This document shows, piece by piece, positions 4,978-51,230 of a DNA stretch of 64,000 bases. Source of the stretch: Pseudomonas phage HPP-Temi; sequence record PP968062.1. One strand, given 5' to 3'. Below the pieces are notes generated by a model, which saw nothing but the letters and a program-made list of their open reading frames with translations, searched no databases and was not told where the DNA came from. Numbering within the stretch: the stretch's first letter is position 1; each line of letters opens with the position of its first letter. The translations under genes were made by a program, and so were the position numbers.

Positions 4978-4999
4978 GCCCTCTCCCGAAGGAGAGGGC
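4978..4999 (-). terminator. Hairpin gccctctcc-CGAA-ggagagggc. On the minus strand it is followed by a T9 run (the A9 run on plus).
   Basis: Perfect 9-bp stem with a CGAA loop. It lies directly downstream of minus-strand gene 5011..5250. It is a member of the recurring hairpin family. Confidence 0.6.
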
Positions 5000-15788: not shown

Positions 15789-17366
15789 TTACTGGTTGAT
15801 CTGAGCGAGGTGGAGAACCACTTCGGTGATCGTATGCTTGATGTTCGGAGGCGGAATCAGAACGTTGTTCTGTGCGATCTGACCAGAGAGTTTAAACAGC
15901 TCACTCGGGCCATGATAGATCCACGTGGAAGAACGGATAGACTGGTTGCAGTTGTTAACCGCAATACCGGCCATGTTGTCAGGCTTCGGAATCTCCCCGG
16001 ATTGAGGAACCTTAGCAAGCTTCATGTGCGGGTACAGTTCATCCAGTTGCGCCTTGTACTTCTGTGCGATCCGCGATCCGCTTCGAGTATTGCTAAGTTG
16101 ATTCGTCGAGCCATGTTCACCATGGTAAACAGGTTCAACTTGCATGAAGACTGCTACATCCAGGTAACCCCAGTGCCACAGCAAAGCCTGTGTGGTTGCC
16201 AGCAAGGTGTTCACCGGCAGCTTGGAGATATGGTAGAATGCACGTGCAGGGAAAGCCTTAGCCATTACCCATTGAGCAAGCAATACCTGGTGAGGACGGA
16301 TCTCGTAGTTCGCGACCTGATTCACGCAGCTAATGCACTTCCGCAGTTTCTCCAGATCAATGGTCGGATCTACTGTAGTTGCCAGCAGTTCGTAATCCAT
16401 TGCATCGATGTTGTAAGCTTCGATATCACCAGGGCTCACTCGACCTTTAGTCTTGTGGGCCTCGATGAACGAGGTCTTATCTTCATCATCACCACCACCG
16501 CCTTCCGGGCGCTTTTCGTTAACCCGATCAGTTGGGCTACGTTCAGCAGGGTTCAGGTTGCTACGCACGTAACGGAACGTGTTAGCTACGATGGAGTGGG
16601 ACATTGGATCGTTCAATGGAACAATAGTCAGTCGACGTACCAGAACCTTCGAGCGAAGGTGTACCGGAATCTCAACCGAACTCATACCCCGCCAGAGACT
16701 ACCCAATGTGGTCGGCTCATCTTCAACGCAGAATTTGACGTACCCTTCCAGTTTGTCGAATGCGACATCTACGTCTTCACCCACTTCGTCTTTTTCGAGC
16801 AACGGCCAGTTAGCAATCTCACAACGGCTGATAAGACCAACGACTTCGTTTTCCTTATGGAGTTCTTGATCCGTACCCGAATCAATGTATTCACCCCAGA
16901 TCGGAACCATCGGACGCAGAGCCAATGCAACTGTTGCCAGGTTGATGTAATCATGTTGCAGGTAAGTCTGCTCCCGCTTGGTATAGCGGGATTCATCAGT
17001 GATCGTTTTCTGGATCTCTGGTGGAATATGCAGGTTACCGATAGTCAGCAACCAACGACGGAGTTTGTTCATCGGCAATGCCGAGTACAGTTCGTGGATG
17101 TAATGAATCAGCGTACTGGAGATGTGCGCAGGTTCGAAGTCCATCTTGAACAGATCGTTGATTTTGACATAGCTGTTCCAAATACGATCTTGGTCAGCTT
17201 CATCACAACCTTCAAGGTAATCGTTGAATTCCTTGAACACCCGAGTAGGGTCGTTGAGTTTTACTTTGCTATAAGCTCGTGTACTCCACTTGATTTCGTT
17301 TCCTTTATGGCTCGTAGTCACTTCTACGAAACCGTTCCCTTGTACTCCAGTTACGTCAATACGCAT
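15789..17366 (-). CDS. hypothetical protein (525 aa)
   Basis: Long ORF with the GAGG SD. A subfamily-A promoter-like element lies about 30 nt upstream. Confidence 0.65.
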   Translation of the reverse strand: MRIDVTGVQGNGFVEVTTSHKGNEIKWSTRAYSKVKLNDPTRVFKEFNDYLEGCDEADQDRIWNSYVKINDLFKMDFEPAHISSTLIHYIHELYSALPMNKLRRWLLTIGNLHIPPEIQKTITDESRYTKREQTYLQHDYINLATVALALRPMVPIWGEYIDSGTDQELHKENEVVGLISRCEIANWPLLEKDEVGEDVDVAFDKLEGYVKFCVEDEPTTLGSLWRGMSSVEIPVHLRSKVLVRRLTIVPLNDPMSHSIVANTFRYVRSNLNPAERSPTDRVNEKRPEGGGGDDEDKTSFIEAHKTKGRVSPGDIEAYNIDAMDYELLATTVDPTIDLEKLRKCISCVNQVANYEIRPHQVLLAQWVMAKAFPARAFYHISKLPVNTLLATTQALLWHWGYLDVAVFMQVEPVYHGEHGSTNQLSNTRSGSRIAQKYKAQLDELYPHMKLAKVPQSGEIPKPDNMAGIAVNNCNQSIRSSTWIYHGPSELFKLSGQIAQNNVLIPPPNIKHTITEVVLHLAQINQ

Positions 17367-17397
17367 TTATACCTCATTGATGCTGGTGATACACAAC

Positions 17398-17427
17398 TGT
17401 AATATAGATCTGAGATATTTTTTAATG
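17398..17427 (-). promoter_or_regulatory. early-promoter-like element, subfamily A (on minus: CATTAAAAAATATCTCAGATCTATATTACA)
   Basis: tGTAATATAGATCTgagatattttttaatg. Consensus member. Confidence 0.5.
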
Positions 17428-17445
17428 TCAGGAAATAGAGGGCAT

Positions 17446-17490
17446 ACAGCATCTCTCGGTATTTACCAAAGAGATGCTGTAGTTTTTTAT
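17446..17490 (+). terminator. hairpin acagcatctct...agagatgctgt followed by GTTTTTTATTT on the plus strand
   Basis: 11-bp stem with a 13-nt loop. The T-run is on the plus strand only. It lies between two minus-strand genes. Confidence 0.45.
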
Positions 17491-18243
17491 TTAGAAGTCA
17501 GGAATGGAGTCGTCGAAACCATTATCCTGGAAACCACCACTAGATGGACGGCTGTAACCGGAAGGAGCACCACCGCTATTACCACCACGGTGGCCGCCAT
17601 TGTAACCGCCTTGACGTTGGCCACCGCCTTGACCACCACCGAAGTTAGCCGGGTTGGCTACGTTCTTAGCGTTCGGATCAAAGCTGGATACCATCATTTG
17701 GTAAATGATTGCAGTTGCGGGTTCGAGGAAACCAGTAGCGTAGGCTTCGGACATTTCTTTCGGGCTGATCGGAGAACCGTCGCCATTCAGGATGGTGTGA
17801 TACTTCGAAGGACCGAAGAAGAAGCGAATACGAGGACGCTGTTGTTGCGAGGAGATCAAAGCGATGTAGATTCGACCGGAGCTTTGTTCACGACCAATCA
17901 CCAGAGAAGTAATCGGAATGATCTTGTCGATCTTCTTACCGCCAACGAAGTCATCTTGATGGACGAACTTACGTTCTTGAGGAACTTCTTTACCATCGAC
18001 CAGATCACGTGCGTACTTCATAGCAGCAGCGAAAGTAGCGAGGTCAGTTTTGAACTCGATCTTACCGTTGTTCAGATCGCCGTTGACGTTAGTTTTAACG
18101 GTCAGGCGCGGAACGTTACCAAAGACACCGAAGCGAAGGTTAGGACGTTTCTGAGAACCTTCTACCGGATCGGCGTGCAGCCAGGTGGACATTACAGAGA
18201 AGGGAGAAAGTGCCGGGCCGTTACCTTGGGTTTGTTGAGACAT
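17491..18243 (-). CDS. single-stranded DNA-binding protein-like (250 aa)
   Basis: Gly-rich disordered C-terminal region (GGGQGGGQRQGGYNGGHRGGNSGGAPSGY) ending in the acidic tip NGFDDSIPDF (compare E. coli SSB ...DDDIPF). GGAG SD. Confidence 0.55.
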   Translation of the reverse strand: MSQQTQGNGPALSPFSVMSTWLHADPVEGSQKRPNLRFGVFGNVPRLTVKTNVNGDLNNGKIEFKTDLATFAAAMKYARDLVDGKEVPQERKFVHQDDFVGGKKIDKIIPITSLVIGREQSSGRIYIALISSQQQRPRIRFFFGPSKYHTILNGDGSPISPKEMSEAYATGFLEPATAIIYQMMVSSFDPNAKNVANPANFGGGQGGGQRQGGYNGGHRGGNSGGAPSGYSRPSSGGFQDNGFDDSIPDF

Positions 18244-18326
18244 GATGTGTTAGCTCCAATTGGATTAATTTTACACTTCGCGAAAGTGTTTCTACGTACT
18301 ATATCGGTGACCAGTATTCTTTCTGA

Positions 18327-19154
18327 TCAGCGCAGAAGTGCATAGGATTCTTTGAGTTCTTTACTGCCATGTGTTGTTATGTCATGGTAGATTTTGTCTT
18401 GTGTTGTAACAGGCGACCAACGTCTTGAAGCAGCTAGTTGCTTTAGTTGAGCCTTGATTGCTTTTGACTGCGCTTCGAAAACAACACCATCTCCGAACAC
18501 TTGTAAAGTGAACTTAGTGAAGGGGATCGGTGTATCCTCTTTTATGCCGTTAAGCTTGGTGTACCACAAGTTGTACGGTTTAATTTTCCCTGTGTGGGAT
18601 TCTAGCAGAAGAAGACGATCGAAATATTGTTTCCACAGTAGTTCATGTGGGAAATGCGTAATCAGAGCGATCGTACCCTGGGTTCGCACTGGAGCTCTAT
18701 CGATCTCCATTACTTCTATTCCTGCATCTTTCATTTGGTGCAGGAGTTCAATTGCAGCGTAGCGTTCGTACACTTCATATGCCATTTGCTTTGGCGTCTT
18801 GGCTTCTTTATAGATAGCCTTGGGGTATTCCCATTTGACCGAGTCTTTAGATGCGATATACCAACGCACCTTCACCTTCGATCCATGTTGCCCCAGTGCA
18901 ACCGGTATTGTTGCGATCTCCTGCATTAGGATAGTCACTGCATCAGCAGGGTTAACGCCATGGACTTTATCCGTAGCTACCGCTGAGTTAAGATTACGGG
19001 CCAACGTTCTAAGGTTGACCCAGATCTCTTTTACCGATTTAACGTCAATTGGGTGCTTGGTCTGATTTGGGTGAATTCCCAAGAACCCCTCAAAGGCAAG
19101 AGAAGTCCCGATACTAACGGGTATCTGACCGACGTCTCTTTCGATGAGTTCCAT
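18327..19154 (-). CDS. hypothetical protein (275 aa)
   Basis: Long ORF on the coding strand. Confidence 0.6.
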   Translation of the reverse strand: MELIERDVGQIPVSIGTSLAFEGFLGIHPNQTKHPIDVKSVKEIWVNLRTLARNLNSAVATDKVHGVNPADAVTILMQEIATIPVALGQHGSKVKVRWYIASKDSVKWEYPKAIYKEAKTPKQMAYEVYERYAAIELLHQMKDAGIEVMEIDRAPVRTQGTIALITHFPHELLWKQYFDRLLLLESHTGKIKPYNLWYTKLNGIKEDTPIPFTKFTLQVFGDGVVFEAQSKAIKAQLKQLAASRRWSPVTTQDKIYHDITTHGSKELKESYALLR

Positions 19155-21890: not shown

Positions 21891-21921
21891 GGTAACTCCG
21901 AAAAAAATAATGGAAAAGTAT

Positions 21922-24541: not shown

Positions 24542-24582
24542 ACCTACTTCCTATTGTGTTGCGACAAAAAAAGGAGATAGAA

Positions 24583-24602
24583 GCGGCTCCCGAAGGAGCC
24601 GC
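24583..24602 (-). terminator. hairpin gcggctcc-CGAA-ggagccgc followed on the minus strand by TTCTATCTCCTTTTTTTG
   Basis: Family member. It lies just upstream of the beta-prime N-terminal gene. Confidence 0.55.
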
Positions 24603-24934
24603 CTTATCTACTATCGATGGACCACCAACGGAGCCTGGCACGATCCTAGCATCGTCTACAAAGCTTAACCTCCGCTCTTCTCTGTAGCACTTTGACACTA
24701 GAACCTTTTACCATCCATCGTTGTTTTGATCACACGTTGCCTTTTGAGCAACTCCTTTCGGTTAAGTGATCGATCACGCCCGTGTAGCGAGAGGTCGACC
24801 TAGACTTTACGTCCACTAGACGATTACTTCGCGGAACCTACTCCTAACCGTTATCACCGAAGTGAACCAGGGTCGCAGTATTTGAATCGGGATGCCAGCC
24901 TTCTGACACCCCTATCAACCGGGGGAGTTGTTTC

Positions 24935-30318: not shown

Positions 30319-31488
30319 TTAAGCCTGTTCACCTTCCGGTACAGAGACTTCTTCAACCGGCTTCAGGGGTTGACCATCAGCACGTTCTTGGAACTTGTCC
30401 AGAAGACGCTTTTGGTAATCCGGGATAGCCTGACCAGATACAGTCTCAACGAAAGAGCTCAGAGTGTGGTTCTTGAGGATCTCGCGTTTAATACCGTCTT
30501 GGGTCTGAGTTTGAATCTGACCCAGCTTAGCCAAGATAGAACCACCCATCAGAGCTTTCACCATACCAGACTTACAGTTGGTGATATGCTTAGAACGCTT
30601 GGCACCTTTCTTTTTCTTACGGCGGGTACGCATGCGGGATTCGATCGAATCGATTTCGGTCGGCTCAGCTTCAACAGTTTCCATTTTGCTCAGGTGTTGT
30701 TCCAGAAGGTCAGTAGACATTGCAGATTCAGTATCAGTAGATTCCAACATGATGTTGTTATGTCCTAGTTCACGAAGTTTATTGTACATGTAGAGACGGC
30801 TATTCGTTTTGGGAATGTCGTCCAATACAGGAGAGGAAATGATTTGGAGTTCGCCCGGTTTGAAGCCCTTGGTGAAAACGTCGTTAATACTCAACCATTC
30901 AGGAGGAGTAACGATACCATCGAACTTTGGCATTTCATTACATTCGGTATCGTAGGTGGGTATCTTTTTCATAAGTACCTCATGTCGTGTACCAGGTAGT
31001 TCACCGTTTTTGCTGATCAGGTTATTGTACTGGGTCCATAGTCTTTGGCTTTGCGAAGTTGTCGATCTTGTACCATGCAATACCCAGCTACGACGAACCA
31101 GGGTCATACCAGCCCAAAGAGTTTCTAGTTGATCCTTAGAGAGTTCTTCATGTTCTTTCATGAAGTTAGCGATAAGATCATCTAATTCTTGGAGTTCATC
31201 CGGTAGATATCCTGCAAGTGTATAACCTGAGTAAGAATCTGTAATCAGTTTGCCTTCCGGAGCGAATGCCTGACGTAGAGCAACATCAAAATGGCAGTAC
31301 ATGTTGTAATCCAACAGTAATGCTTGTTCCATATAGGGGTAGTCTAAGCCAAGTGTACAGATCTTTGCGAAACGGCTAGCTCCAGGTTGAGCAATCTCAC
31401 CACATAGATTACCATCCAGTACATTGTAAGTACCGAAAGGAAAAGATACAACTTCTTTATTTTGCGTTGGATTGGAATTATACATCAT
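30319..31488 (-). CDS. hypothetical protein (389 aa) with a Lys-rich patch (RTRRKKKKGAKRSK)
   Basis: Long ORF. Confidence 0.6.
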   Translation of the reverse strand: MMYNSNPTQNKEVVSFPFGTYNVLDGNLCGEIAQPGASRFAKICTLGLDYPYMEQALLLDYNMYCHFDVALRQAFAPEGKLITDSYSGYTLAGYLPDELQELDDLIANFMKEHEELSKDQLETLWAGMTLVRRSWVLHGTRSTTSQSQRLWTQYNNLISKNGELPGTRHEVLMKKIPTYDTECNEMPKFDGIVTPPEWLSINDVFTKGFKPGELQIISSPVLDDIPKTNSRLYMYNKLRELGHNNIMLESTDTESAMSTDLLEQHLSKMETVEAEPTEIDSIESRMRTRRKKKKGAKRSKHITNCKSGMVKALMGGSILAKLGQIQTQTQDGIKREILKNHTLSSFVETVSGQAIPDYQKRLLDKFQERADGQPLKPVEEVSVPEGEQA

Positions 31489-40622: not shown

Positions 40623-40646
40623 GCCCCTACCCGAAGGTAGGGGCTT
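40623..40646. terminator. hairpin agcccctacc-CGAA-ggtaggggct (identical to 29822), with an A8 run before and TTTATG after
   Basis: Bidirectional, between convergent genes. On the minus strand it is followed by TTTATTTTTTTTAC. Confidence 0.6.
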
Positions 40647-43857: not shown

Positions 43858-44805
43858 TTACAGAACGAAACCGTCATCAGAACGGTTGTCATCGATATCA
43901 ACGATTGCTGCACGCTGGGTATAGCGAACCTGCTGACGATGGTGTTCTTGTTTCTGATCCAGCAGCGATTTGATGCGTTCCTGAATACCTACCGAATTGA
44001 TTACGAAGTGCAGCTGTTCAGACAGAGCATCTTCATCTTCCGGAGAGGCGATACCAACAGTGCGAACGAACGGGTTACCATAGGCAACTTCTTTCGCGGC
44101 ATCGGTGTACAGGGAAGCAACAGAGATCATCTCGGGAACTGCGGCAGCTTCCTGACGAGAAGTGTGGATGTGCAGTTCACACAGTTGCGGCTGGATGTAG
44201 CTGTGCTTGTTGGTGAAACGAGCCCAGTGATCCAGGTCCAGAACATCCAGACGAGCGTGCTTCTGGTTGGACAGGTAGATCAGCGAGTGTACAGCGAACA
44301 CTGCATCTTTGTCGATCTCGGAGTATGCGACGCCATTGACGTTCTCGATCGGACAGATGCTGATCGGAGTATTGGTTGCAGCAGCGATACCTTCCAGGGT
44401 CTTCATGGTGTCGATGTCGTTCTGAAGAACTTCAGTCGATTCAATACCACTGATGACCACAGCTACAACAGTCTCACCAGCTTTTGCCAGAGCCGATACC
44501 AGCAGCGGACCGAGAACCGAACCAGAACCACCACCCATGGAGAACAGAACAACGTTGAAGTCGCCTGCCGGGTAGCGTTCGAGGAAAGGAGCGATCTGAT
44601 GACGAACCTTCGGCATGATGAATGCACGATTCTTACCTGCACCACGGGTACCCTCTGTCAGGTAGACGCGTTCAAGATCGTGATCAGCAGTCACGTTCTT
44701 ATCGCAGGTATCGATGTACACCAGATCCGGATGCCATTGAAGGTTGACGCCAACGTTCAGACCAGCACCACCACAGCAGTATACACGAGTTTTAACTTTA
44801 GTCAT
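43858..44805 (-). CDS. phuZ: PhuZ-like phage tubulin (315 aa)
   Basis: N-terminal GTP-binding loop RVYCCGGAGLNVG. Tubulin/FtsZ signature variant SMGGGSGSVLGPLL. An acidic C-terminal tail ...DIDDNRSDDGFVL. AGAGGA SD. Confidence 0.8.
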   Translation of the reverse strand: MTKVKTRVYCCGGAGLNVGVNLQWHPDLVYIDTCDKNVTADHDLERVYLTEGTRGAGKNRAFIMPKVRHQIAPFLERYPAGDFNVVLFSMGGGSGSVLGPLLVSALAKAGETVVAVVISGIESTEVLQNDIDTMKTLEGIAAATNTPISICPIENVNGVAYSEIDKDAVFAVHSLIYLSNQKHARLDVLDLDHWARFTNKHSYIQPQLCELHIHTSRQEAAAVPEMISVASLYTDAAKEVAYGNPFVRTVGIASPEDEDALSEQLHFVINSVGIQERIKSLLDQKQEHHRQQVRYTQRAAIVDIDDNRSDDGFVL

Positions 44806-45149: not shown

Positions 45150-45914
45150 TTAGCTAAGAACTAACTCTTGGTCTTTGAACGAATTGAGATAGACTTTAAC
45201 CTGAACATCGACTCCAAGATAGTAACCTACCATCAAGGTTACCGTACAGTTATCGTGAACCATGGTGTTAACAATGGATACATTGTCCAGATTAGCAAAA
45301 TTCTTGATTGTCGGCGTTATCCGATAAATCTTCGGAATCGACTCGAAGTCAAACTCGTGTCTTTCGCTAACCTTCAGCGTATTCAGATCCACGAACGTGA
45401 TTGTCTTTGGACGACAATATTCATCAACTTCGACATGTTTAATCGCAGATGGCGTATTCTCAGGAACTAGAAGCTGATATACACGATCATTACTGTAGAA
45501 AGTAATACGACCCATCTCTTGGTTCAGCCATTCAGTCGGCTTATAGAAACTAACTGAGTGCACCGCGGTATCAAAGCTCATGGAGCTCTGTACATCGAAG
45601 AATACGTAGCCATCGGAGATCATGTGCTCTACCAGTTTCTGATAGTGCTCACCCAGACGGTGTAAAGTTTGGCGAGTAGCAATAGAACCGAAGAACGCAC
45701 CCAAGTTCTGGCGGGTATGCTCCAGGTTAGATTCACTCGGAGCGTAAGTCTCCTCGAACTCTTTCTTGGTAACGTTCCATTCGGAGATCTTCAGGAAGAT
45801 GTCATTGGTAACAGGATGAACTGCACCAAAGGTGATTTCATCTACGTTTTCAATAACTAGGAAGTTTTTAAAGATCTCTTTGATCTTGGGGAACTCGGTT
45901 CCAATGGACTTCAT
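45150..45914 (-). CDS. hypothetical protein (254 aa)
   Basis: ORF on the coding strand. Confidence 0.55.
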   Translation of the reverse strand: MKSIGTEFPKIKEIFKNFLVIENVDEITFGAVHPVTNDIFLKISEWNVTKKEFEETYAPSESNLEHTRQNLGAFFGSIATRQTLHRLGEHYQKLVEHMISDGYVFFDVQSSMSFDTAVHSVSFYKPTEWLNQEMGRITFYSNDRVYQLLVPENTPSAIKHVEVDEYCRPKTITFVDLNTLKVSERHEFDFESIPKIYRITPTIKNFANLDNVSIVNTMVHDNCTVTLMVGYYLGVDVQVKVYLNSFKDQELVLS

Positions 45915-46039
45915 TTCTTTTCCTCTTTGGGGTGTACCAGGAAGGTAAAGCCCGATCCATCATTGTGGATCACCAGTTCCAGAGTACCACCCGTGTTGAT
46001 GGCATGTTGCATGAGACGGTTGTAATTGATTGCGCTCAT
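45911..46039 (-). CDS. small hypothetical protein (42 aa), not in the ORF track
   Basis: GAGGAAA SD, then ATG. MSAINYNRLMQHAINTGGTLELVIHNDGSGFTFLVHPKEEKK. Its stop overlaps the next ATG (AAATGAAG). Confidence 0.35.
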   Translation of the reverse strand: MSAINYNRLMQHAINTGGTLELVIHNDGSGFTFLVHPKEEKK

Positions 46040-46049
46040 TTGTATTTCC

Positions 46050-46271
46050 TCAGATGATGATTTCTGAAACGGGTACCACGCGAATATTCAATACAGTCGG
46101 AGATTGATGCTCGCGACTAACCGTTGCCATTATCACAGCGGGATAAGAGCAACGAATTGTGTTGGGGGAGATCATGTCCACTTTGAATTTCTGGTACATG
46201 TGTTTGATAAGTTCATGGACATCGTCATCGTTTTTTACAAGGAACAAAGAATCGGGGATCAATGTTTTCAT
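46050..46271 (-). CDS. hypothetical protein (73 aa)
   Basis: First gene downstream of the promoter-like element at 46308. Confidence 0.45.
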   Translation of the reverse strand: MKTLIPDSLFLVKNDDDVHELIKHMYQKFKVDMISPNTIRCSYPAVIMATVSREHQSPTVLNIRVVPVSEIII

Positions 46272-46307
46272 TTTTGGTTTTCCAAGTTTTGGGATAGTAT
46301 TCCTCTA

Positions 46308-46335
46308 GGTAATATAGATCTAAGATTATTTTTAC
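46308..46335 (-). promoter_or_regulatory. early-promoter-like element, subfamily A (gGTAATATAGATCTaagattatttttac)
   Basis: Lies 35 nt upstream of the ATG at 46271. It would head an operon that ends with phuZ. Confidence 0.5.
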
Positions 46336-46437
46336 TATTGGGTGGATGGGGCTTTGTAGCCCCACGACACCCTCTTCCAAGTTTTGCGACATAGTCGTTT
46401 TTTGTTTCCCTACCCCTGACTAAAGAATAAGGAAATT

Positions 46438-46475
46438 ATATATGGGACCCCCCCAAAGGGTCCCCCCCACATATA
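46438..46475. repeat. palindromic C7/G7 element TATATGGGACCCCCCCAAAGGGTCCCCCCCACATATA (on minus: G3-N1-G3-N7-G3-N1-G3, a potential G-quadruplex)
   Basis: GGGACCC/GGGTCCC form a 7-bp stem. There are two C7 runs (G7 on the minus strand). It is flanked by the TATATG/CATATA arms. Confidence 0.5.
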
Positions 46476-46612
46476 ATTACTATTTATATAAAAATTCTTT
46501 TAGAAGAAAAAGCTTTGAATAATGAAAATACTCTTTATTAAAGAATTCTATTCTTCTACTACAAATTACTTATGCGCGGCCCGGCCCCGCGAAAAAGAAA
46601 AAAAGAAAGCAA

Positions 46613-46632
46613 CCCTCTCCCGAAGGAGAGGG
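46613..46632. terminator. hairpin ccctctcc-CGAA-ggagaggg, bidirectional
   Basis: On the minus strand it is followed by TTGCTTTCTTTTTTTCTTTTT. On the plus strand it is followed by TTTATGCC. Confidence 0.6.
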
Positions 46633-46641
46633 CTTTATGCC

Positions 46642-47427
46642 TTAACGGTTACTTAGCTTGACCATGGAAACAAATTTATCATCCCAGGTCAGTTTGTCCA
46701 TGTCGAAGTAACGTTGAGGGTACATGGTGAAACCAACAGCCGTACCATGGTAGATGCTATCTGGATCATTCACAGCAATCACAGTAGAACGAGTGTACTC
46801 ACCTGCATAATTTTTCATTATGTGGACGAAGGACTTAATGTTCTTATTGCCTGTCAACCAAGTCATGCGACGCTGAGCTACTTCAGCGAAACGAAGAACT
46901 TCAGAACGTACCCACTGAGGATAATGGGTAACGTTGTTGTTCTCTAGAGGAACGACACGATCGACATCTTCCTCAAGATCACCGAAACTAAAACCGCTTA
47001 CCAAACCAACGATCTGGAAAAAGACTGGCTTCTCTGCCATATCGGTGATGGTTTGATACATGCCGTTACTAGTACAGGCGAAGCCACGATCTGCAAACTC
47101 ATCCATTATGTCGGTGTAAGCTCGCTGAATACGAGGTTCGATCCAGCAGCAACGGTCGACGTAATGTTTAATGAGAAGACCCTTGACGTGCTCTTTGTAA
47201 CTTTCTTCATCGAACGAAGAGTTCAGGCCACGCACGTTCAGATAAGAACGATCACGTCCTTCAAACGTAAATGTAGGCTTACTCCAGCCACTGTGGCTTT
47301 CAACGAACACACGGATGGTGTAGCTGTCCAGCGCGCCATTTCCGGTCACGTTGTACCAAATTGTGTCGAGGTGGTTCTTGGTTAAGCCGAGGTCGAGAGC
47401 ATTGAAACTGAAATCGATGTCAGACAT
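46642..47427 (-). CDS. hypothetical protein (261 aa)
   Basis: AGGAG SD. Confidence 0.6.
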   Translation of the reverse strand: MSDIDFSFNALDLGLTKNHLDTIWYNVTGNGALDSYTIRVFVESHSGWSKPTFTFEGRDRSYLNVRGLNSSFDEESYKEHVKGLLIKHYVDRCCWIEPRIQRAYTDIMDEFADRGFACTSNGMYQTITDMAEKPVFFQIVGLVSGFSFGDLEEDVDRVVPLENNNVTHYPQWVRSEVLRFAEVAQRRMTWLTGNKNIKSFVHIMKNYAGEYTRSTVIAVNDPDSIYHGTAVGFTMYPQRYFDMDKLTWDDKFVSMVKLSNR

Positions 47428-47460
47428 TGTAGACTCCTGTTAGGGGATGGAATATCACTA

Positions 47461-47487
47461 CTGTAATGTAGATCTAAAAACAAATAC
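47461..47487 (-). promoter_or_regulatory. early-promoter-like element, subfamily A variant (ctGTAATGTAGATCTaaaaacaaatac)
   Basis: Lies 35 nt upstream of the ATG at 47427 and immediately after the hairpin at 47496. Confidence 0.4.
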
Positions 47488-47495
47488 AACATAAA

Positions 47496-47513
47496 GCCTC
47501 CCCGAAGGGAGGC
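47496..47513 (-). terminator. hairpin gcctccc-CGAA-gggaggc followed by GTTTATA
   Basis: Family member. Confidence 0.5.
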
Positions 47514-47520
47514 GTTTATA

Positions 47521-47826
47521 TTACTCGATTTCAACCCAAGGGCGAAGATCCATTACGGTCGGAGCAGCTTTCTTGATGTAAGCCAGAATAGCAGCTTTAT
47601 CAACAGTAGGCTTCAAAGCAATACCAATTACGATACTGTCTTTGTTACGAACTAGTTTACGGACCTGGTTGCTCTCCAGACGCTGTTCTTCGAAGAACAG
47701 TTTACTGGGGAAGGGTAAGTCATAGGGAAGCTGGAAAAGCTTATGTAGGACCATTGGAACGGTTTCCAGAGGGGTACCTAGTTCAGCTTTGATTTCTTCC
47801 AGAGTAACTTCAAATTGCGTAGCCAT
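47521..47826 (-). CDS. hypothetical protein (101 aa)
   Basis: AAGGA SD. Confidence 0.5.
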   Translation of the reverse strand: MATQFEVTLEEIKAELGTPLETVPMVLHKLFQLPYDLPFPSKLFFEEQRLESNQVRKLVRNKDSIVIGIALKPTVDKAAILAYIKKAAPTVMDLRPWVEIE

Positions 47827-47835
47827 ATCAAATCC

Positions 47836-48603
47836 TTAGATTGTGTAGTATTCGTGATAACGACGAAGCTTATCGTCATCCAGAGCGATCTCTTGATAAC
47901 TGATAGTGATCTTCATGTGGTTCCACGGAGAACGGAATGCACGACCCGTTAGGGATACTTCACGATAGTCATTTACTTTTTCATCGACCACGGATTCCTC
48001 GAATACAACACCGAGCTTACCGAAACGTTTAATGAGCAGTTCAATGGACCGACCCAGTTCACCAGGAACATCAGGGAACTCAGTAGCAGATGCAATACGG
48101 GGCATTACTACCGGACCGTCTTCAACTTCGTAATTAACTTTGAATACAACTACGCCGAGATCGGTTTTGATGGGACGGAAAATCCGATAGCCGTCTTTAT
48201 TTAGACGCAGAGTGTAACCGTCATCAGGATATGCTTCTTGTAAAGCCTCTAGATGATCCTCCAGTGCACGAACGATACTCCGGTTGTACCGTAGCTCCCT
48301 TTCTCGGTAATCGCGTTCAAACGCTTCTTGGGGGCCTTCTTTTGTGAATTCTTTTACGACCGTATATTCGATTGTCTCACCAGTCAAGTGATCAGTGATA
48401 ATAAACAAATAGGTCATCGCATCGACCAGAGAGTGTTGGACACTGTACCGTTTTACGTCACACGGGACTGCGTCTGCACGCTCTTCTTTGAGATAGTCAA
48501 ACATGTCTTTGAGATGAGCCCATACGTCACAATTCGTACCGAGCCCATCGATGTCAATAGACGTATCTGGAACTTCTCTTTTAGCGCAGCAACTCATACG
48601 CAC
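47836..48603 (-). CDS. hypothetical protein (255 aa)
   Basis: AGAGGTG SD. Confidence 0.6.
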   Translation of the reverse strand: MRMSCCAKREVPDTSIDIDGLGTNCDVWAHLKDMFDYLKEERADAVPCDVKRYSVQHSLVDAMTYLFIITDHLTGETIEYTVVKEFTKEGPQEAFERDYRERELRYNRSIVRALEDHLEALQEAYPDDGYTLRLNKDGYRIFRPIKTDLGVVVFKVNYEVEDGPVVMPRIASATEFPDVPGELGRSIELLIKRFGKLGVVFEESVVDEKVNDYREVSLTGRAFRSPWNHMKITISYQEIALDDDKLRRYHEYYTI

Positions 48604-51202: not shown

Positions 51203-51230
51203 ATGTAATATAGATCTAAGATAATTTTTA
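51203..51230 (-). promoter_or_regulatory. early-promoter-like element, subfamily A (atGTAATATAGATCTaagataattttta)
   Basis: Consensus member. Confidence 0.5.

Follow-up and report, generated by a model that had tools for sequence, protein, structure and literature searches.

What keeps a short stretch of intergenic DNA nearly unchanged across giant Pseudomonas phages while the genes around it are replaced? The question is raised by a locus in Pseudomonas phage HPP-Temi (PP968062.1), of which a stretch of 64,000 nucleotides, here called the window, was analysed. A sequence-only reading of the window had singled out the 370-nt region 46272-46641 as a candidate origin or regulatory hub. We confirm that this region is an intergenic gap, flanked by the minus-strand genes 46050..46271 and 46642..47427. 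The former lies in the same operon as the gene of the tubulin PhuZ (44805..43858, minus strand). A gap of ~370 nt is likewise found in PA1C, PS119XW, phiHQ and BRkr. The upstream gene shows no homology to phiKZ Dip (gp37), the downstream genes show none to phiKZ gp38, and neither side could be assigned to a PHROG family.

Organization of the intergenic gap

The gap is predicted to fold far more stably than shuffled sequence on both strands (z = -4.6 for the plus and -5.9 for the minus strand). Its ends carry ordinary jumbo-phage punctuation, a terminator hairpin on one side and an early promoter on the other (Table 1).

Table 1 Features of the gap and of its central element.
Feature	Position	Strand	Remarks
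Main element, long bulged hairpin	46434..46478	-	arms and core
5' arm AATTATATGT	46478-46469	sense (minus)	main element
Core GGGGGGGACCCTTTGGGGGGGTCCC	46468-46444	sense (minus)	main element
3' arm ATATATAATT	46443-46434	sense (minus)	main element
Conserved tail TCCTTATTCTTTAG	46420..46433	- (sense)	directly after main hairpin
AT-rich block	46479..46573	-	most AT-rich DNA in window
Terminator hairpin	46611..46634	.	CCCTCTCC-cgaa-GGAGAGGG, extended
GC-only hairpin CGCGG-CCCGGCC-CCGCG	46575..46591	.	kept in PA1C group
Hairpin GCGAC-ATA-GTCG then T6	46386..46404	+	identical in PA1C group
Nested hairpin GGGTG-GAT-GGGGC-TTTGTA-GCCCC-ACGA-CACCC	46340..46372	.	
phiKZ-type early (virion RNA polymerase) promoter TAAAAATAATCTTAGATCTATATTAC	46309..46334	-	motif match

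The terminator hairpin, which had been placed at 46613, has its first base 7 nt past the stop codon that closes the minus-strand gene 46642..47427. On the minus strand a long T-run (46593-46610) comes next, and on the plus strand TTTATGCC, the phiKZ-type terminator tail. Near-identical copies are found at 4978, 52528, 48655 and 40623. Judged by the published motif (BCCYCCCCHWWDGGGRRGGBYTTATKYYGT; Putzeys et al. 2024, PMC10914365), the hairpin is a plain member of the phiKZ-type terminator family. Its orientation was considered as proof of a plus-strand transcript and is ambiguous, because the terminators of the window are generally palindromic (CATAAAG...CTTTATG).

The GC-only hairpin and the hairpin followed by T6 are both present as described in the sequence-only reading. 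The former occurs in a longer form in phiPA3. The latter is terminator-like for plus-strand (antisense) transcription that would otherwise enter the element from the left. The nested hairpin also exists, offset by ~6 nt from the 46346-46378 originally given for it. On the sense strand the early promoter comes right after this hairpin, whose structure is kept in phiPA3 with a GGGGC/GCCCC to GGGAC/GTCCC change.

What had been noted as a promoter-like element at 46308 is indeed a promoter motif of the phiKZ early type, located on the minus strand. Further copies are present in the window at 51205, 17399, 26873 and 47463, and the consensus ...AAAAAAAnTTTnAGATCTATATTAC is common to the window and phiKZ. 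Within the gap, the early-promoter features (A-run, TTTnAGAT, CTATATTAC) are found together only at 46334->46309 (minus). By its motif, this is the promoter predicted to drive the operon that runs from 46271..46050 to PhuZ. The gap supports the view of a regulatory hub, since it holds a terminator and an early promoter as well as several other hairpins and a centre that is deeply conserved.

The claim that the region has no ORF on either strand does not hold literally. Mechanical ORFs overlap the gap on both strands (46104..46394 and 46522..46656 on the plus strand, 46225..46392 on the minus strand), though they are not conserved. Small plus-strand ORFs across the core are annotated in PA1C, phiPA3 and D6. 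We rejected such an ORF (MGPPQRVPP...), as its reading frame is not kept and its ATG is lost in L016, 201phi2-1 and Noxifer; the frame shifts among relatives because the C-run is 6, 7 or 9 nt long. The Rfam 15 covariance models gave no relevant match at E<=1 in 45500-47500 and nothing at the gathering score in the whole 64-kb window. No sigma-70 promoter was detected within the central element.

A structured element at the centre of the gap

The exceptional part of the gap is its centre (~46420-46545). Here GGGACCCCCCCAAAGGGTCCCCCCC stands between two complementary 10-bp AT arms, adjoined by a tail and by AT-rich DNA. The inverted repeats of the element are GGGACCC/GGGTCCC and the 10-nt AT arms (46434-46443 and 46469-46478). 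The label of a C7/G7 palindrome was therefore mistaken, since both runs are C7 on the plus strand. These two runs, 14 nt apart, are the only G/C runs of at least 6 in the 64 kb, where ~10 would be expected, and the G runs of the element are the only runs of at least 7 in the 280-kb phiKZ genome. TATG occurs at 46473-46470 on the sense strand (G = 46470) and at 46443-46446 on the plus strand.

RNAalifold places 19 pairs in the element, 6 of them with compensatory changes. The arms form 7-10 bp in each of 13 distinct lineages, with AT, TA and GC switches at the same positions, and the core ranges from 22 to 32 nt in length. These changes in arm sequence and core length rule out a rigid dimeric protein site and favour a fold. 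The core is invariant in 6 lineages, and the loop (UUUGGGG) and the bulge nucleotides are invariant even though they are unpaired. In every lineage the fold is 5-13 kcal/mol more stable on the sense strand. The second pair of the element is G·U on this strand versus A·C on the other, and tandem G·A pairs are found on it in the 201phi2-1-type elements. This uneven distribution of non-Watson-Crick pairs suggests that folding takes place on a single strand, namely that of the gene sense (minus). A scan for the architecture (AT arms, G-run, C-run) shows that the element is unique in the window and in phiKZ; the other hits are ordinary terminators.

The tail that follows the hairpin is kept even in Noxifer-type phages. 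It contains CTTATTCT, which fits the terminator tail YTTATKYY, and the full hairpin (46478-46434, sense) followed by T-CCTTATTCT combines a GC-rich hairpin with such a tail. The same tail is found after ordinary terminator hairpins at 21914 in the window and at 196077 in phiKZ.

On the other side of the hairpin lies the AT-rich block, which had been put at about 85% AT. The value is 82.4% for 46481-46565 and 84.7% for 46471-46555, the top 85-nt stretch of the 64-kb window; the best elsewhere reaches 72.9%. The 8-bp inverted repeat TAGAAGAA (46501-46508) / TTCTTCTA (46551-46558) is present, with 42 rather than 45 nt between its halves, and constitutes a longer-range pairing. AGAATTCT, also noted before, is located at 46543-46550. 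The block further contains a small hairpin (HP-A, 46532-46544), which reads CTTC-GATA-GAAG, CTCC-GATA-GGAG or CTTT-AAT-AAAG depending on the lineage. Next to HP-A in the sense direction comes GTATTTTCATTATTC, which nearly repeats the tail of the main hairpin.

Conservation across giant Pseudomonas phages

Each of 57 Pseudomonas jumbo-phage records contains the element once (BLAST, one place per genome), and a BLAST search for second or divergent copies found none. Host mimicry was rejected, as none of 185,579 bacterial and archaeal species genomes contains the 24-nt core. Over the 121-nt centre, identity is 81% with phiKZ, 86-89% with Psa21, D6, phiPA3 and RVTF4, and 95-96% with the PA1C group. 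Coding DNA of the window is 63-70% identical to phiKZ, the PhuZ protein 37%, and the flanking proteins have no similarity to phiKZ. Conservation falls off with distance from the core; the AT block nearest to it, to ~46545, is conserved as far as phiKZ.

The element lies consistently 1-5 genes upstream of PhuZ in every lineage examined, and this position upstream of the PhuZ operon is seen in phiKZ, phiPA3, Psa21, D6, RVTF4, PA1C-like phages, 201phi2-1, Viktualia and Noxifer. In the 201phi2-1-type and Noxifer-type phages the GC core differs, while the arms, the 5' G-run and the tail are kept. Comparison with related genomes, which had been proposed as a check on the locus, thus finds both position and structure preserved, the latter with compensatory changes.

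The element has outlasted the turnover of every neighbouring gene in at least 8 named lineages and with three core variants. Because it stays nearly unchanged while the surrounding genes are replaced, its function must, judging from these comparisons, be an important one, hitherto undescribed. In phiKZ, where the element lies between gp037 and gp038, per-gene Tn-seq counts indicate that gp036-041 tolerate transposon insertions and are dispensable (PMC12676376). The element is also a handy marker for this phage group in metagenomes. A metagenome scan with the tail motif gave only chance matches among the matches listed. Phage EL is too divergent for alignment, and large structured gaps are present upstream of its PhuZ gene too.

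A possible transcription control module at the head of the PhuZ operon

The reading that we favour, tentatively and at somewhat less than an even chance, is that the terminator-like hairpin and the TATG start site it overlaps form a transcription control module heading the PhuZ operon. RNA arriving from upstream would carry both AT-rich arms and the G-rich/C-rich core, and would fold into a ~45-nt hairpin followed by UCCUUAUUCUUUAG. AU arms, GC core and YUUAUKYY tail would give it the architecture that ends other transcripts in these phages, whose ordinary terminators likewise have AU arms around a GC stem; a hairpin that shares this architecture would stop or attenuate read-through. The TATG inside the 5' arm would be a start motif for the non-virion RNA polymerase. 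Transcripts started there would lack the 5' arm and could not form the full terminator; they would carry a G-rich hairpin leader at the 5' end and continue into the PhuZ operon. In the window lineage, the canonical terminator 46611-46634 additionally brackets the module, and the separate early promoter 46334->46309 follows it. We infer that termination and initiation occur at these sites and that a phage factor, itself conserved, reads the invariant core. With a size of ~45-120 nt, the element is a concrete, mutable target.

TATG is the late-promoter consensus, with G at +1 (PMC7618050, PMC12809450). The sense-strand TATG is present at the arm/core junction in 13 of the 18 homologous sequences. 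It is absent from UViG L016 and from all four Noxifer-type sequences, where the hairpin is still kept. The -10..+1 sequence GTAATTATATG is identical at 10 of 11 positions to the region upstream of the gp054 secondary start in phiKZ. Between the element and PhuZ, no early-promoter motif was found in phiKZ and Psa21. Other promoter types were tried and rejected for the element itself: neither strand fits the well-defined early consensus, the middle promoter (A-rich-TACT-N13-15-TATG) is not present, and the -20..+1 sequence has no other occurrence in either the window or phiKZ, which excludes a recurrent promoter class.

The polarity of the stem is opposite to the published terminator consensus. 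On the sense strand the G-rich side of the element is 5' and the C-rich side 3', whereas that consensus (BCCYCCCC...GGGRRGG) has a C-rich 5' arm and a G-rich 3' arm. PhuZ is reported to be an early gene of phiKZ (PMC13282480); if so, the early polymerase must read through the element, which would then not be a strong unconditional terminator. The extreme AT-richness and the unique G7 runs are not called for by this reading. An ordinary terminator or promoter for insertion-tolerant genes has no obvious need for a 25-nt core that is invariant across genera.

Alternative functions

By analogy with T4 oriF/oriG, ColE1 and mitochondrial CSB II, the element might instead be a replication origin or a priming site, which we consider unlikely. 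The non-virion RNA polymerase would start at the sense TATG and at once transcribe G7-ACCCTTT-G7. The G-rich RNA would persist as a hybrid with the C-rich template, the displaced G-rich strand would fold (hairpin or G-quadruplex), the adjoining >80% AT block would melt, and the RNA, or primase on the folded strand, would prime DNA synthesis. Put specifically, and with the same doubt, the element would be the primary origin or an essential priming/loading site of phiKZ-like nucleus-forming phages, fired via a stable G-rich RNA:DNA hybrid by their own nuclear RNA polymerase and read by a phage factor co-evolving with the three core variants. The initiation of DNA replication in these phages is not defined in the accessible literature, nor is an origin described, in agreement with the sequence-only reading. 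The element is single-copy, syntenic and better conserved than any neighbouring gene. Its flanking genes gp036-041 are dispensable in the phiKZ Tn-seq data, which makes their expression an unlikely sole reason for its conservation. It also adjoins the 85-nt stretch with the highest AT content in the window, as expected of an unwinding stretch. Its G-runs, the only ones of such length in phiKZ, lie on the non-template strand just past the TATG motif, with one immediately past the 5' arm whichever of the three core types is present, and the window lineage has terminators on both flanks that face the element. The AT-rich stretch, the single copy and the conservation are compatible with an origin, yet the tests made here lend it no positive backing: a skew switch, iterons and an adjacent replication gene are missing. 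The cumulative GC and AT skews of phiKZ follow gene orientation, with extremes at ~0 and ~265 kb and nothing at ~31.2 kb, where the element lies; the cumulative AT skew of the window has its minimum at 46410, but within a flat trough at 42-48 kb. Instead of an iteron array there is a single imperfect 12-nt direct repeat (AGAATAAGGAAAT / TGAATAATGAAAAT) that is decayed in D6 and RVTF4, and no initiator, helicase or polymerase gene is adjacent. The AT-rich block is upstream of the TATG, unlike the downstream location in T4 origins, and 5 of 18 sequences lack the TATG itself. Neither the G6 lineages nor the 201phi2-1-type core could form a three-tetrad G-quadruplex. An origin also leaves the conserved terminator-like tail unexplained, and the non-Watson-Crick asymmetry points to one folded strand, that of the genes.

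A gene for a small non-coding RNA that acts in trans or as a decoy would account for the invariance of the unpaired loop and bulge, which would bind a conserved phage or host protein; this we consider quite unlikely. The RNA could be a sense-strand species of ~50-130 nt with its 3' end at the tail, or a plus-strand species of ~195 nt running from the plus-strand TATG (G at 46446) to the plus-oriented terminator 46611-46641. Two covarying hairpins lie inside ~130 nt, 11 of 14 aligned sequences have the plus-strand TATG, and the downstream hairpin with TTTATGCC is laid out on the plus strand like the convergent-gene terminator at 40623. Short RNAs from early termination are common in phiKZ and 201phi2-1 (PMC10914365, PMC11512511). 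Against such a gene, Rfam gives no match, conservation decays from the core outward and covers no defined RNA body with a terminator, and the plus-strand fold is weaker, with A·C mismatches. The accessible published searches for phiKZ non-coding RNAs report none at this locus. Still less probable is another cis-acting DNA site for a conserved phage protein. Such a site might serve to initiate packaging (pac), or it might belong to the PhuZ operon as an operator or a centromere-like site, in the way that tubC lies upstream of tubR-tubZ. The single copy with its invariant 25-bp core, the constant place upstream of the tubulin operon across all lineages examined and two near-identical 11-nt units in the element (GGGACCCCCCC and GGGTCCCCCCC, 14 bp apart) are consistent with such a site. 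Tubulin centromeres are direct-repeat arrays bound by TubR. Neither a direct-repeat array nor a TubR-like gene is seen here. As for a pac site, phiKZ is described as circularly permuted with arbitrary ends (PMC12676376), and the large terminase gene is ~17 kb from the element. In addition, the 201phi2-1-type and Noxifer-type phages have other core sequences but retain the fold, which argues for recognition of a structure rather than of a duplex sequence.

Comparison with known systems

R-loop origins (T4 oriF/oriG, ColE1 RNA II, mitochondrial LSP/CSB II) combine a promoter, a G-rich non-template strand near the start and an AT-rich stretch prone to unwinding. The element has a putative promoter, a G-rich non-template strand and an AT-rich stretch, and is single-copy like these origins. 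It differs in that its AT-rich block is upstream of the putative start, in the absence of a skew signal and in the terminator-like tail. The hairpin promoters of the phage N4 virion RNA polymerase, a single-subunit enzyme, have stems of 5-7 bp and 3-nt loops. They share with the element an inverted repeat at a start site, putative in the element, and the conservation of a fold instead of a duplex sequence. In contrast, the early promoters of the present phage group are a well-defined linear motif that the element does not match.

The phiKZ-type intrinsic terminators (PMC10914365) resemble the element in their GC-rich stem, AU-rich arms and YTTATKYY-type tail (CTTATTCT in the element), as well as in their location between transcription units. 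Besides its reversed polarity with a G-rich 5' arm, the element is set apart by the 10-bp arms, the G-run bulge and the 7-nt loop. The terminators exist as many interchangeable copies, whereas the element has no second copy in the genome, keeps its synteny and hardly varies between genera. The promoters of the phiKZ non-virion RNA polymerase (PMC7618050, PMC12809450) have a possible counterpart in the TATG, which in most lineages lies in an AT-rich context at the arm/core junction, and in the likeness of the -10..+1 sequence to the gp054 secondary start. Unlike the element, the known promoters have no conserved hairpin or flanking consensus, and 5 of the 18 homologous elements lack the TATG. 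Middle promoters differ from it by their A-rich-TACT upstream motif.

A further parallel is a 5'UTR-derived small RNA upstream of a tail gene (201phi2-1 sRNA005 / phiKZ gp182; PMC11512511). It differs from the element in locus, sequence and structure, and the element is not mentioned in that study. Both are non-coding, structured and conserved in position across giant Pseudomonas phage genera, and in phiKZ the small RNA ends at a hairpin followed by TTCCTTATT.

Conservation and genomic setting

The window belongs to a phiKZ-like, nucleus-forming jumbo phage of Pseudomonas. PA1C (84% identity over the 60 kb that aligns), PS119XW (Pawinskivirus), phiHQ, BRkr, HHBS36_1 and phiLBG22, all P. aeruginosa phages, are the nearest relatives in the database, and all close relatives share the ~370-nt gap. 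The gap is flanked by two minus-strand genes, 46642..47427 (261 aa) and 46050..46271 (73 aa), and the operon downstream of it extends to the tubulin gene PhuZ (44805..43858).

The gap is ~90% identical to that of PA1C-like phages, with ~98% identity at 46321-46492 and ~80% in the flanks. At its centre, the 121-nt stretch 46423-46543 is 81% identical to phiKZ and 86-89% identical to Psa21, D6, phiPA3 and RVTF4. In the window's coding DNA, identity to phiKZ reaches only 63-70% where an alignment is possible, and PhuZ shares 37% protein identity. The stretch occurs in exactly one copy in each of 57 genome records, and IMG/VR contains further copies of the element, among them a divergent one in the uncultivated phage sequence L016. 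The comparative alignment proposed in the sequence-only reading places the element in a gap 1–5 genes upstream of PhuZ in every genome examined.

The proteins encoded on either side of the element show no resemblance to Dip (gp37) and gp38, which take their place in phiKZ, and no PHROG family matches them. The surrounding genes (window 46642-47427 and 45150-46271; phiKZ gp036-gp041) are lineage-specific, and phiKZ gp036-041 all tolerate transposon insertions in Tn-seq (PMC12676376). The element therefore resides in a zone of rapid gene turnover. It is worth following up, as in phiKZ, a model phage, it marks out a target of ~45-120 nt (31,150-31,260) that is directly mutable.

Positions of the central element and of the features around it
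Feature	Position	Strand	Remarks
Early (virion RNA polymerase) promoter	46334->46309	minus	TAAAAATAATCTTAGATCTATATTAC, matches consensus ...AAAAAAAnTTTnAGATCTATATTAC
Nested hairpin	46340-46372	+	terminator-like
GCGAC-ATA-GTCG hairpin, then T6	46386-46404	+	terminator-like
Central repeat	46434-46478		GGGACCC pairs with GGGTCCC, plus two 10-nt AT arms
AT-rich block	46471-46555		84.7% AT
Terminator hairpin	46611-46634		member of near-identical terminator family
phiKZ element	between gp037 / gp038
phiPA3 element	between 022 / 024
Psa21 element	between gp024 / gp025
RVTF4 and D6 elements	in equivalent gaps

A unique element that probably folds on the sense strand

All features listed in the sequence-only reading were confirmed, with minor corrections. 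The central repeat had been described as a C7/G7 palindrome. The repeat is real; the label is inaccurate, as both C7 runs lie on the + strand. The AT-rich block is the most AT-rich 85 nt of the window (next-best stretch elsewhere in the 64 kb, 72.9%). The inverted repeat TAGAAGAA/TTCTTCTA, the palindrome AGAATTCT and the GC hairpin CGCGG...CCGCG are all present in the gap. Contrary to the claim that neither strand carries an ORF, mechanical ORFs do run across the gap, and small + strand ORFs over the core are annotated in three GenBank records. We rejected the core ORF as a gene because it is not conserved: the C-run is 6, 7 or 9 nt long and the ATG is missing in some lineages.

The two runs of the element are the only G/C runs of at least 6 nt in the window, where a first-order Markov model predicts ~10, and the only runs of at least 7 nt in the whole 280-kb phiKZ genome. 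Throughout both sequences, G or C homopolymer runs are much rarer than expected (runs of at least 5 nt in the window: 21 versus 47 expected), and the element has the only long ones. A scan for the architecture of AT arms, G-run and C-run found no second copy, matching only ordinary, shorter terminators, and a search of 185,579 bacterial and archaeal species genomes found no copy of the 24-nt core.

Folding of the whole gap far exceeds that of shuffled sequence (z = -4.6 for the + strand, -5.9 for the minus strand). RNAalifold, applied to 14 sense-strand sequences, yields a single long hairpin with bulges; of its 19 pairs, 6 have compensatory double changes. The arms pair over 7–10 bp in 13 distinct lineages despite differing sequences; arm position 6 is A-T, T-A or G-C by lineage, with switches at positions 1-4, 7 and 8 as well. 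A small hairpin ~55 nt upstream on the sense strand covaries as well (CTTC-GATA-GAAG, CTCC-GATA-GGAG or CTTT-AAT-AAAG).

The non-Watson-Crick pairs are informative as to which strand folds and point to the sense strand. All phiKZ-type elements except that of L016 have G·U at pair position 2 (A·C on the other strand), and 201phi2-1-type elements have a tandem G·A there, which becomes U·C on the other strand. The sense fold of the element is the more stable in every lineage tested (-35 to -43 versus -28 to -36 kcal/mol), as is that of the whole gap (-114 versus -97 kcal/mol).

Three core types share one architecture

BLAST with the element did not match 201phi2-1. Read directly, the syntenic gap of this phage (gp53/gp54) contains a homologue of the element whose GC core differs: on the sense strand the sequence is AAATAGTAATATTATGA-GGGGGGTGCCTCGGTGGCCCCC-GAATAATATTTCATTATTCTTAGTA. 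The Viktualia element is of the same type. A third core, GGGGGAGGGAGTCGG-ACGA-CCGACCCC, is found between AT arms in Noxifer and three uncultivated relatives, followed by the tail TCCTTATTCTTTAGTA, which is shared with the other types. All three types keep the two AT-rich arms, the G-run directly after the 5' arm on the gene-sense strand, the C-run preceding the 3' arm, the tail after the hairpin and the AT-rich stretch upstream.

In two uncultivated contigs of the Noxifer type (L030 8134-8260, L037 2512-2640), the unpaired G-rich segment GGGGGAGGG is exactly complementary to CCCTCCCCC, located ~20 nt downstream of the tail. CCCTCCCCC in turn forms the 5' arm of CCCCC-tgttt-GGGGG-TCTTATTCC, a canonical terminator. 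Judged from sequence, the layout in these contigs looks like an attenuator with alternative pairings.

Punctuation at the gap ends

Using phiKZ as a key, together with repeats inside the window, we typed both ends of the gap. Both are standard punctuation of the phage group: one is an early promoter, the other a phiKZ-type terminator, and both classes are known. By motif, the promoter-like element noticed earlier is a promoter of the early type on the minus strand; the window has ~12 occurrences of its consensus, and phiKZ has 15. The terminator hairpin was confirmed; a long T-run borders it on the gene-sense side, and the published TTTATG-type tail (PMC10914365) lies on the opposite side. Since terminators here are generally palindromic (CATAAAG...CTTTATG), its orientation is no proof of antisense transcription.

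In the left half of the gap (46340-46404), two + strand terminator-like hairpins face the central element. The nested one had been placed at 46346-46378, six nucleotides off its true position; the T6 hairpin is as described. The block is 100% identical within the PA1C group, and phiPA3 retains the nested structure via a compensatory change. Together with a possible start near 46340, these hairpins could give a + strand RNA of ~65 nt.

Function of the central element

The features relevant to mechanism mostly favour transcription. The earlier suggestion of a regulatory hub is supported. The post-hairpin tail (T)TCCTTATTCTTT agrees with YTTATKYY, the terminator tail in the literature; it recurs after ordinary terminator hairpins at window 21914 and phiKZ 196077, and a near-copy lies 3' of the small upstream hairpin. 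In these genomes, ordinary terminators likewise have a GC stem enclosed by AU arms. Start sites of the non-virion polymerase have the consensus TATG, with G at +1 (PMC7618050, PMC12809450); in 13 of 18 sequences this motif occurs within the sense-strand 5' arm, and the window's -10..+1 region matches the phiKZ gp054 secondary start at 10 of 11 positions. This suggests a combined terminator-promoter module. RNA started upstream would carry both arms, form the complete fold and stop or pause at the tail; RNA started at TATG would lack the 5' arm and read on into the PhuZ operon. From the element to PhuZ, phiKZ and Psa21 contain no early-promoter motif. Such a motif has been gained by the window lineage and by phiPA3, both of which also have a canonical terminator upstream of the element.

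Several observations run against this reading. Although architecture and tail resemble a phiKZ-type terminator, the stem polarity, a defining terminator feature, is the reverse of the consensus. The start motif is that of a TATG promoter, but TATG is missing in L016 and the Noxifer type. Nor does the element belong to a repeated class; it is unique and syntenic. PhuZ is reported to be early in phiKZ (PMC13282480), where the early polymerase must therefore get past the element. A terminator for dispensable genes should also not need a 25-nt core that stays unchanged from genus to genus. Our preferred reading is a transcription punctuation element, with a real chance of something more.

T4 oriF, ColE1 and mitochondrial CSB II are transcription-primed replication origins. 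The element could be of this kind, as it is single-copy, is conserved more strongly than its dispensable neighbours, adjoins the most AT-rich DNA of the window and has G-clusters on the non-template strand just past a possible start site. The origin proposed in the sequence-only reading nevertheless gained no support from the tests run and is unlikely: phiKZ skews track gene orientation, with extremes at ~0 and ~265 kb, the window's cumulative AT-skew minimum at 46410 falls inside a flat trough, and the element has neither iterons nor adjoining replication genes. As had been noted, the accessible literature defines no origin for phiKZ-like phages. A trans-acting or decoy small RNA seems quite improbable; the element matches no Rfam family, and the non-coding RNAs of phiKZ and 201phi2-1 in the accessible literature (PHIKZ298/297, p40 leader, PHIKZ221, PHIKZ302, gp182 leader) do not include it. 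Some other DNA site, such as a pac site or an operator of the tubulin operon, is very doubtful. The inter-arm distance varies from 22 to 32 nt, a range that a rigid dimeric protein bound to duplex DNA could not accommodate and that is expected of a hairpin.

Other large gaps

Just upstream of PhuZ, phage EL has very large non-coding gaps (17009-17658 and 18208-18713; 650 and 500 nt) with G-rich inverted repeats, e.g. GGGGGTAAGATTCTTTAG...TAAAGAATCTTGGGGG. These gaps, which are not alignable with the element, may be its distant counterpart. A 393-nt gap of normal GC lies at window 24542-24934, between a homologue of chimallin (nuclear shell) and a non-virion RNA polymerase beta-like gene. It matches no Rfam family at gathering score and is partly conserved at the nucleotide level with a same-size phiKZ gap (47529-47922, gp054/gp055); it looks like a conserved structured leader or non-coding RNA.
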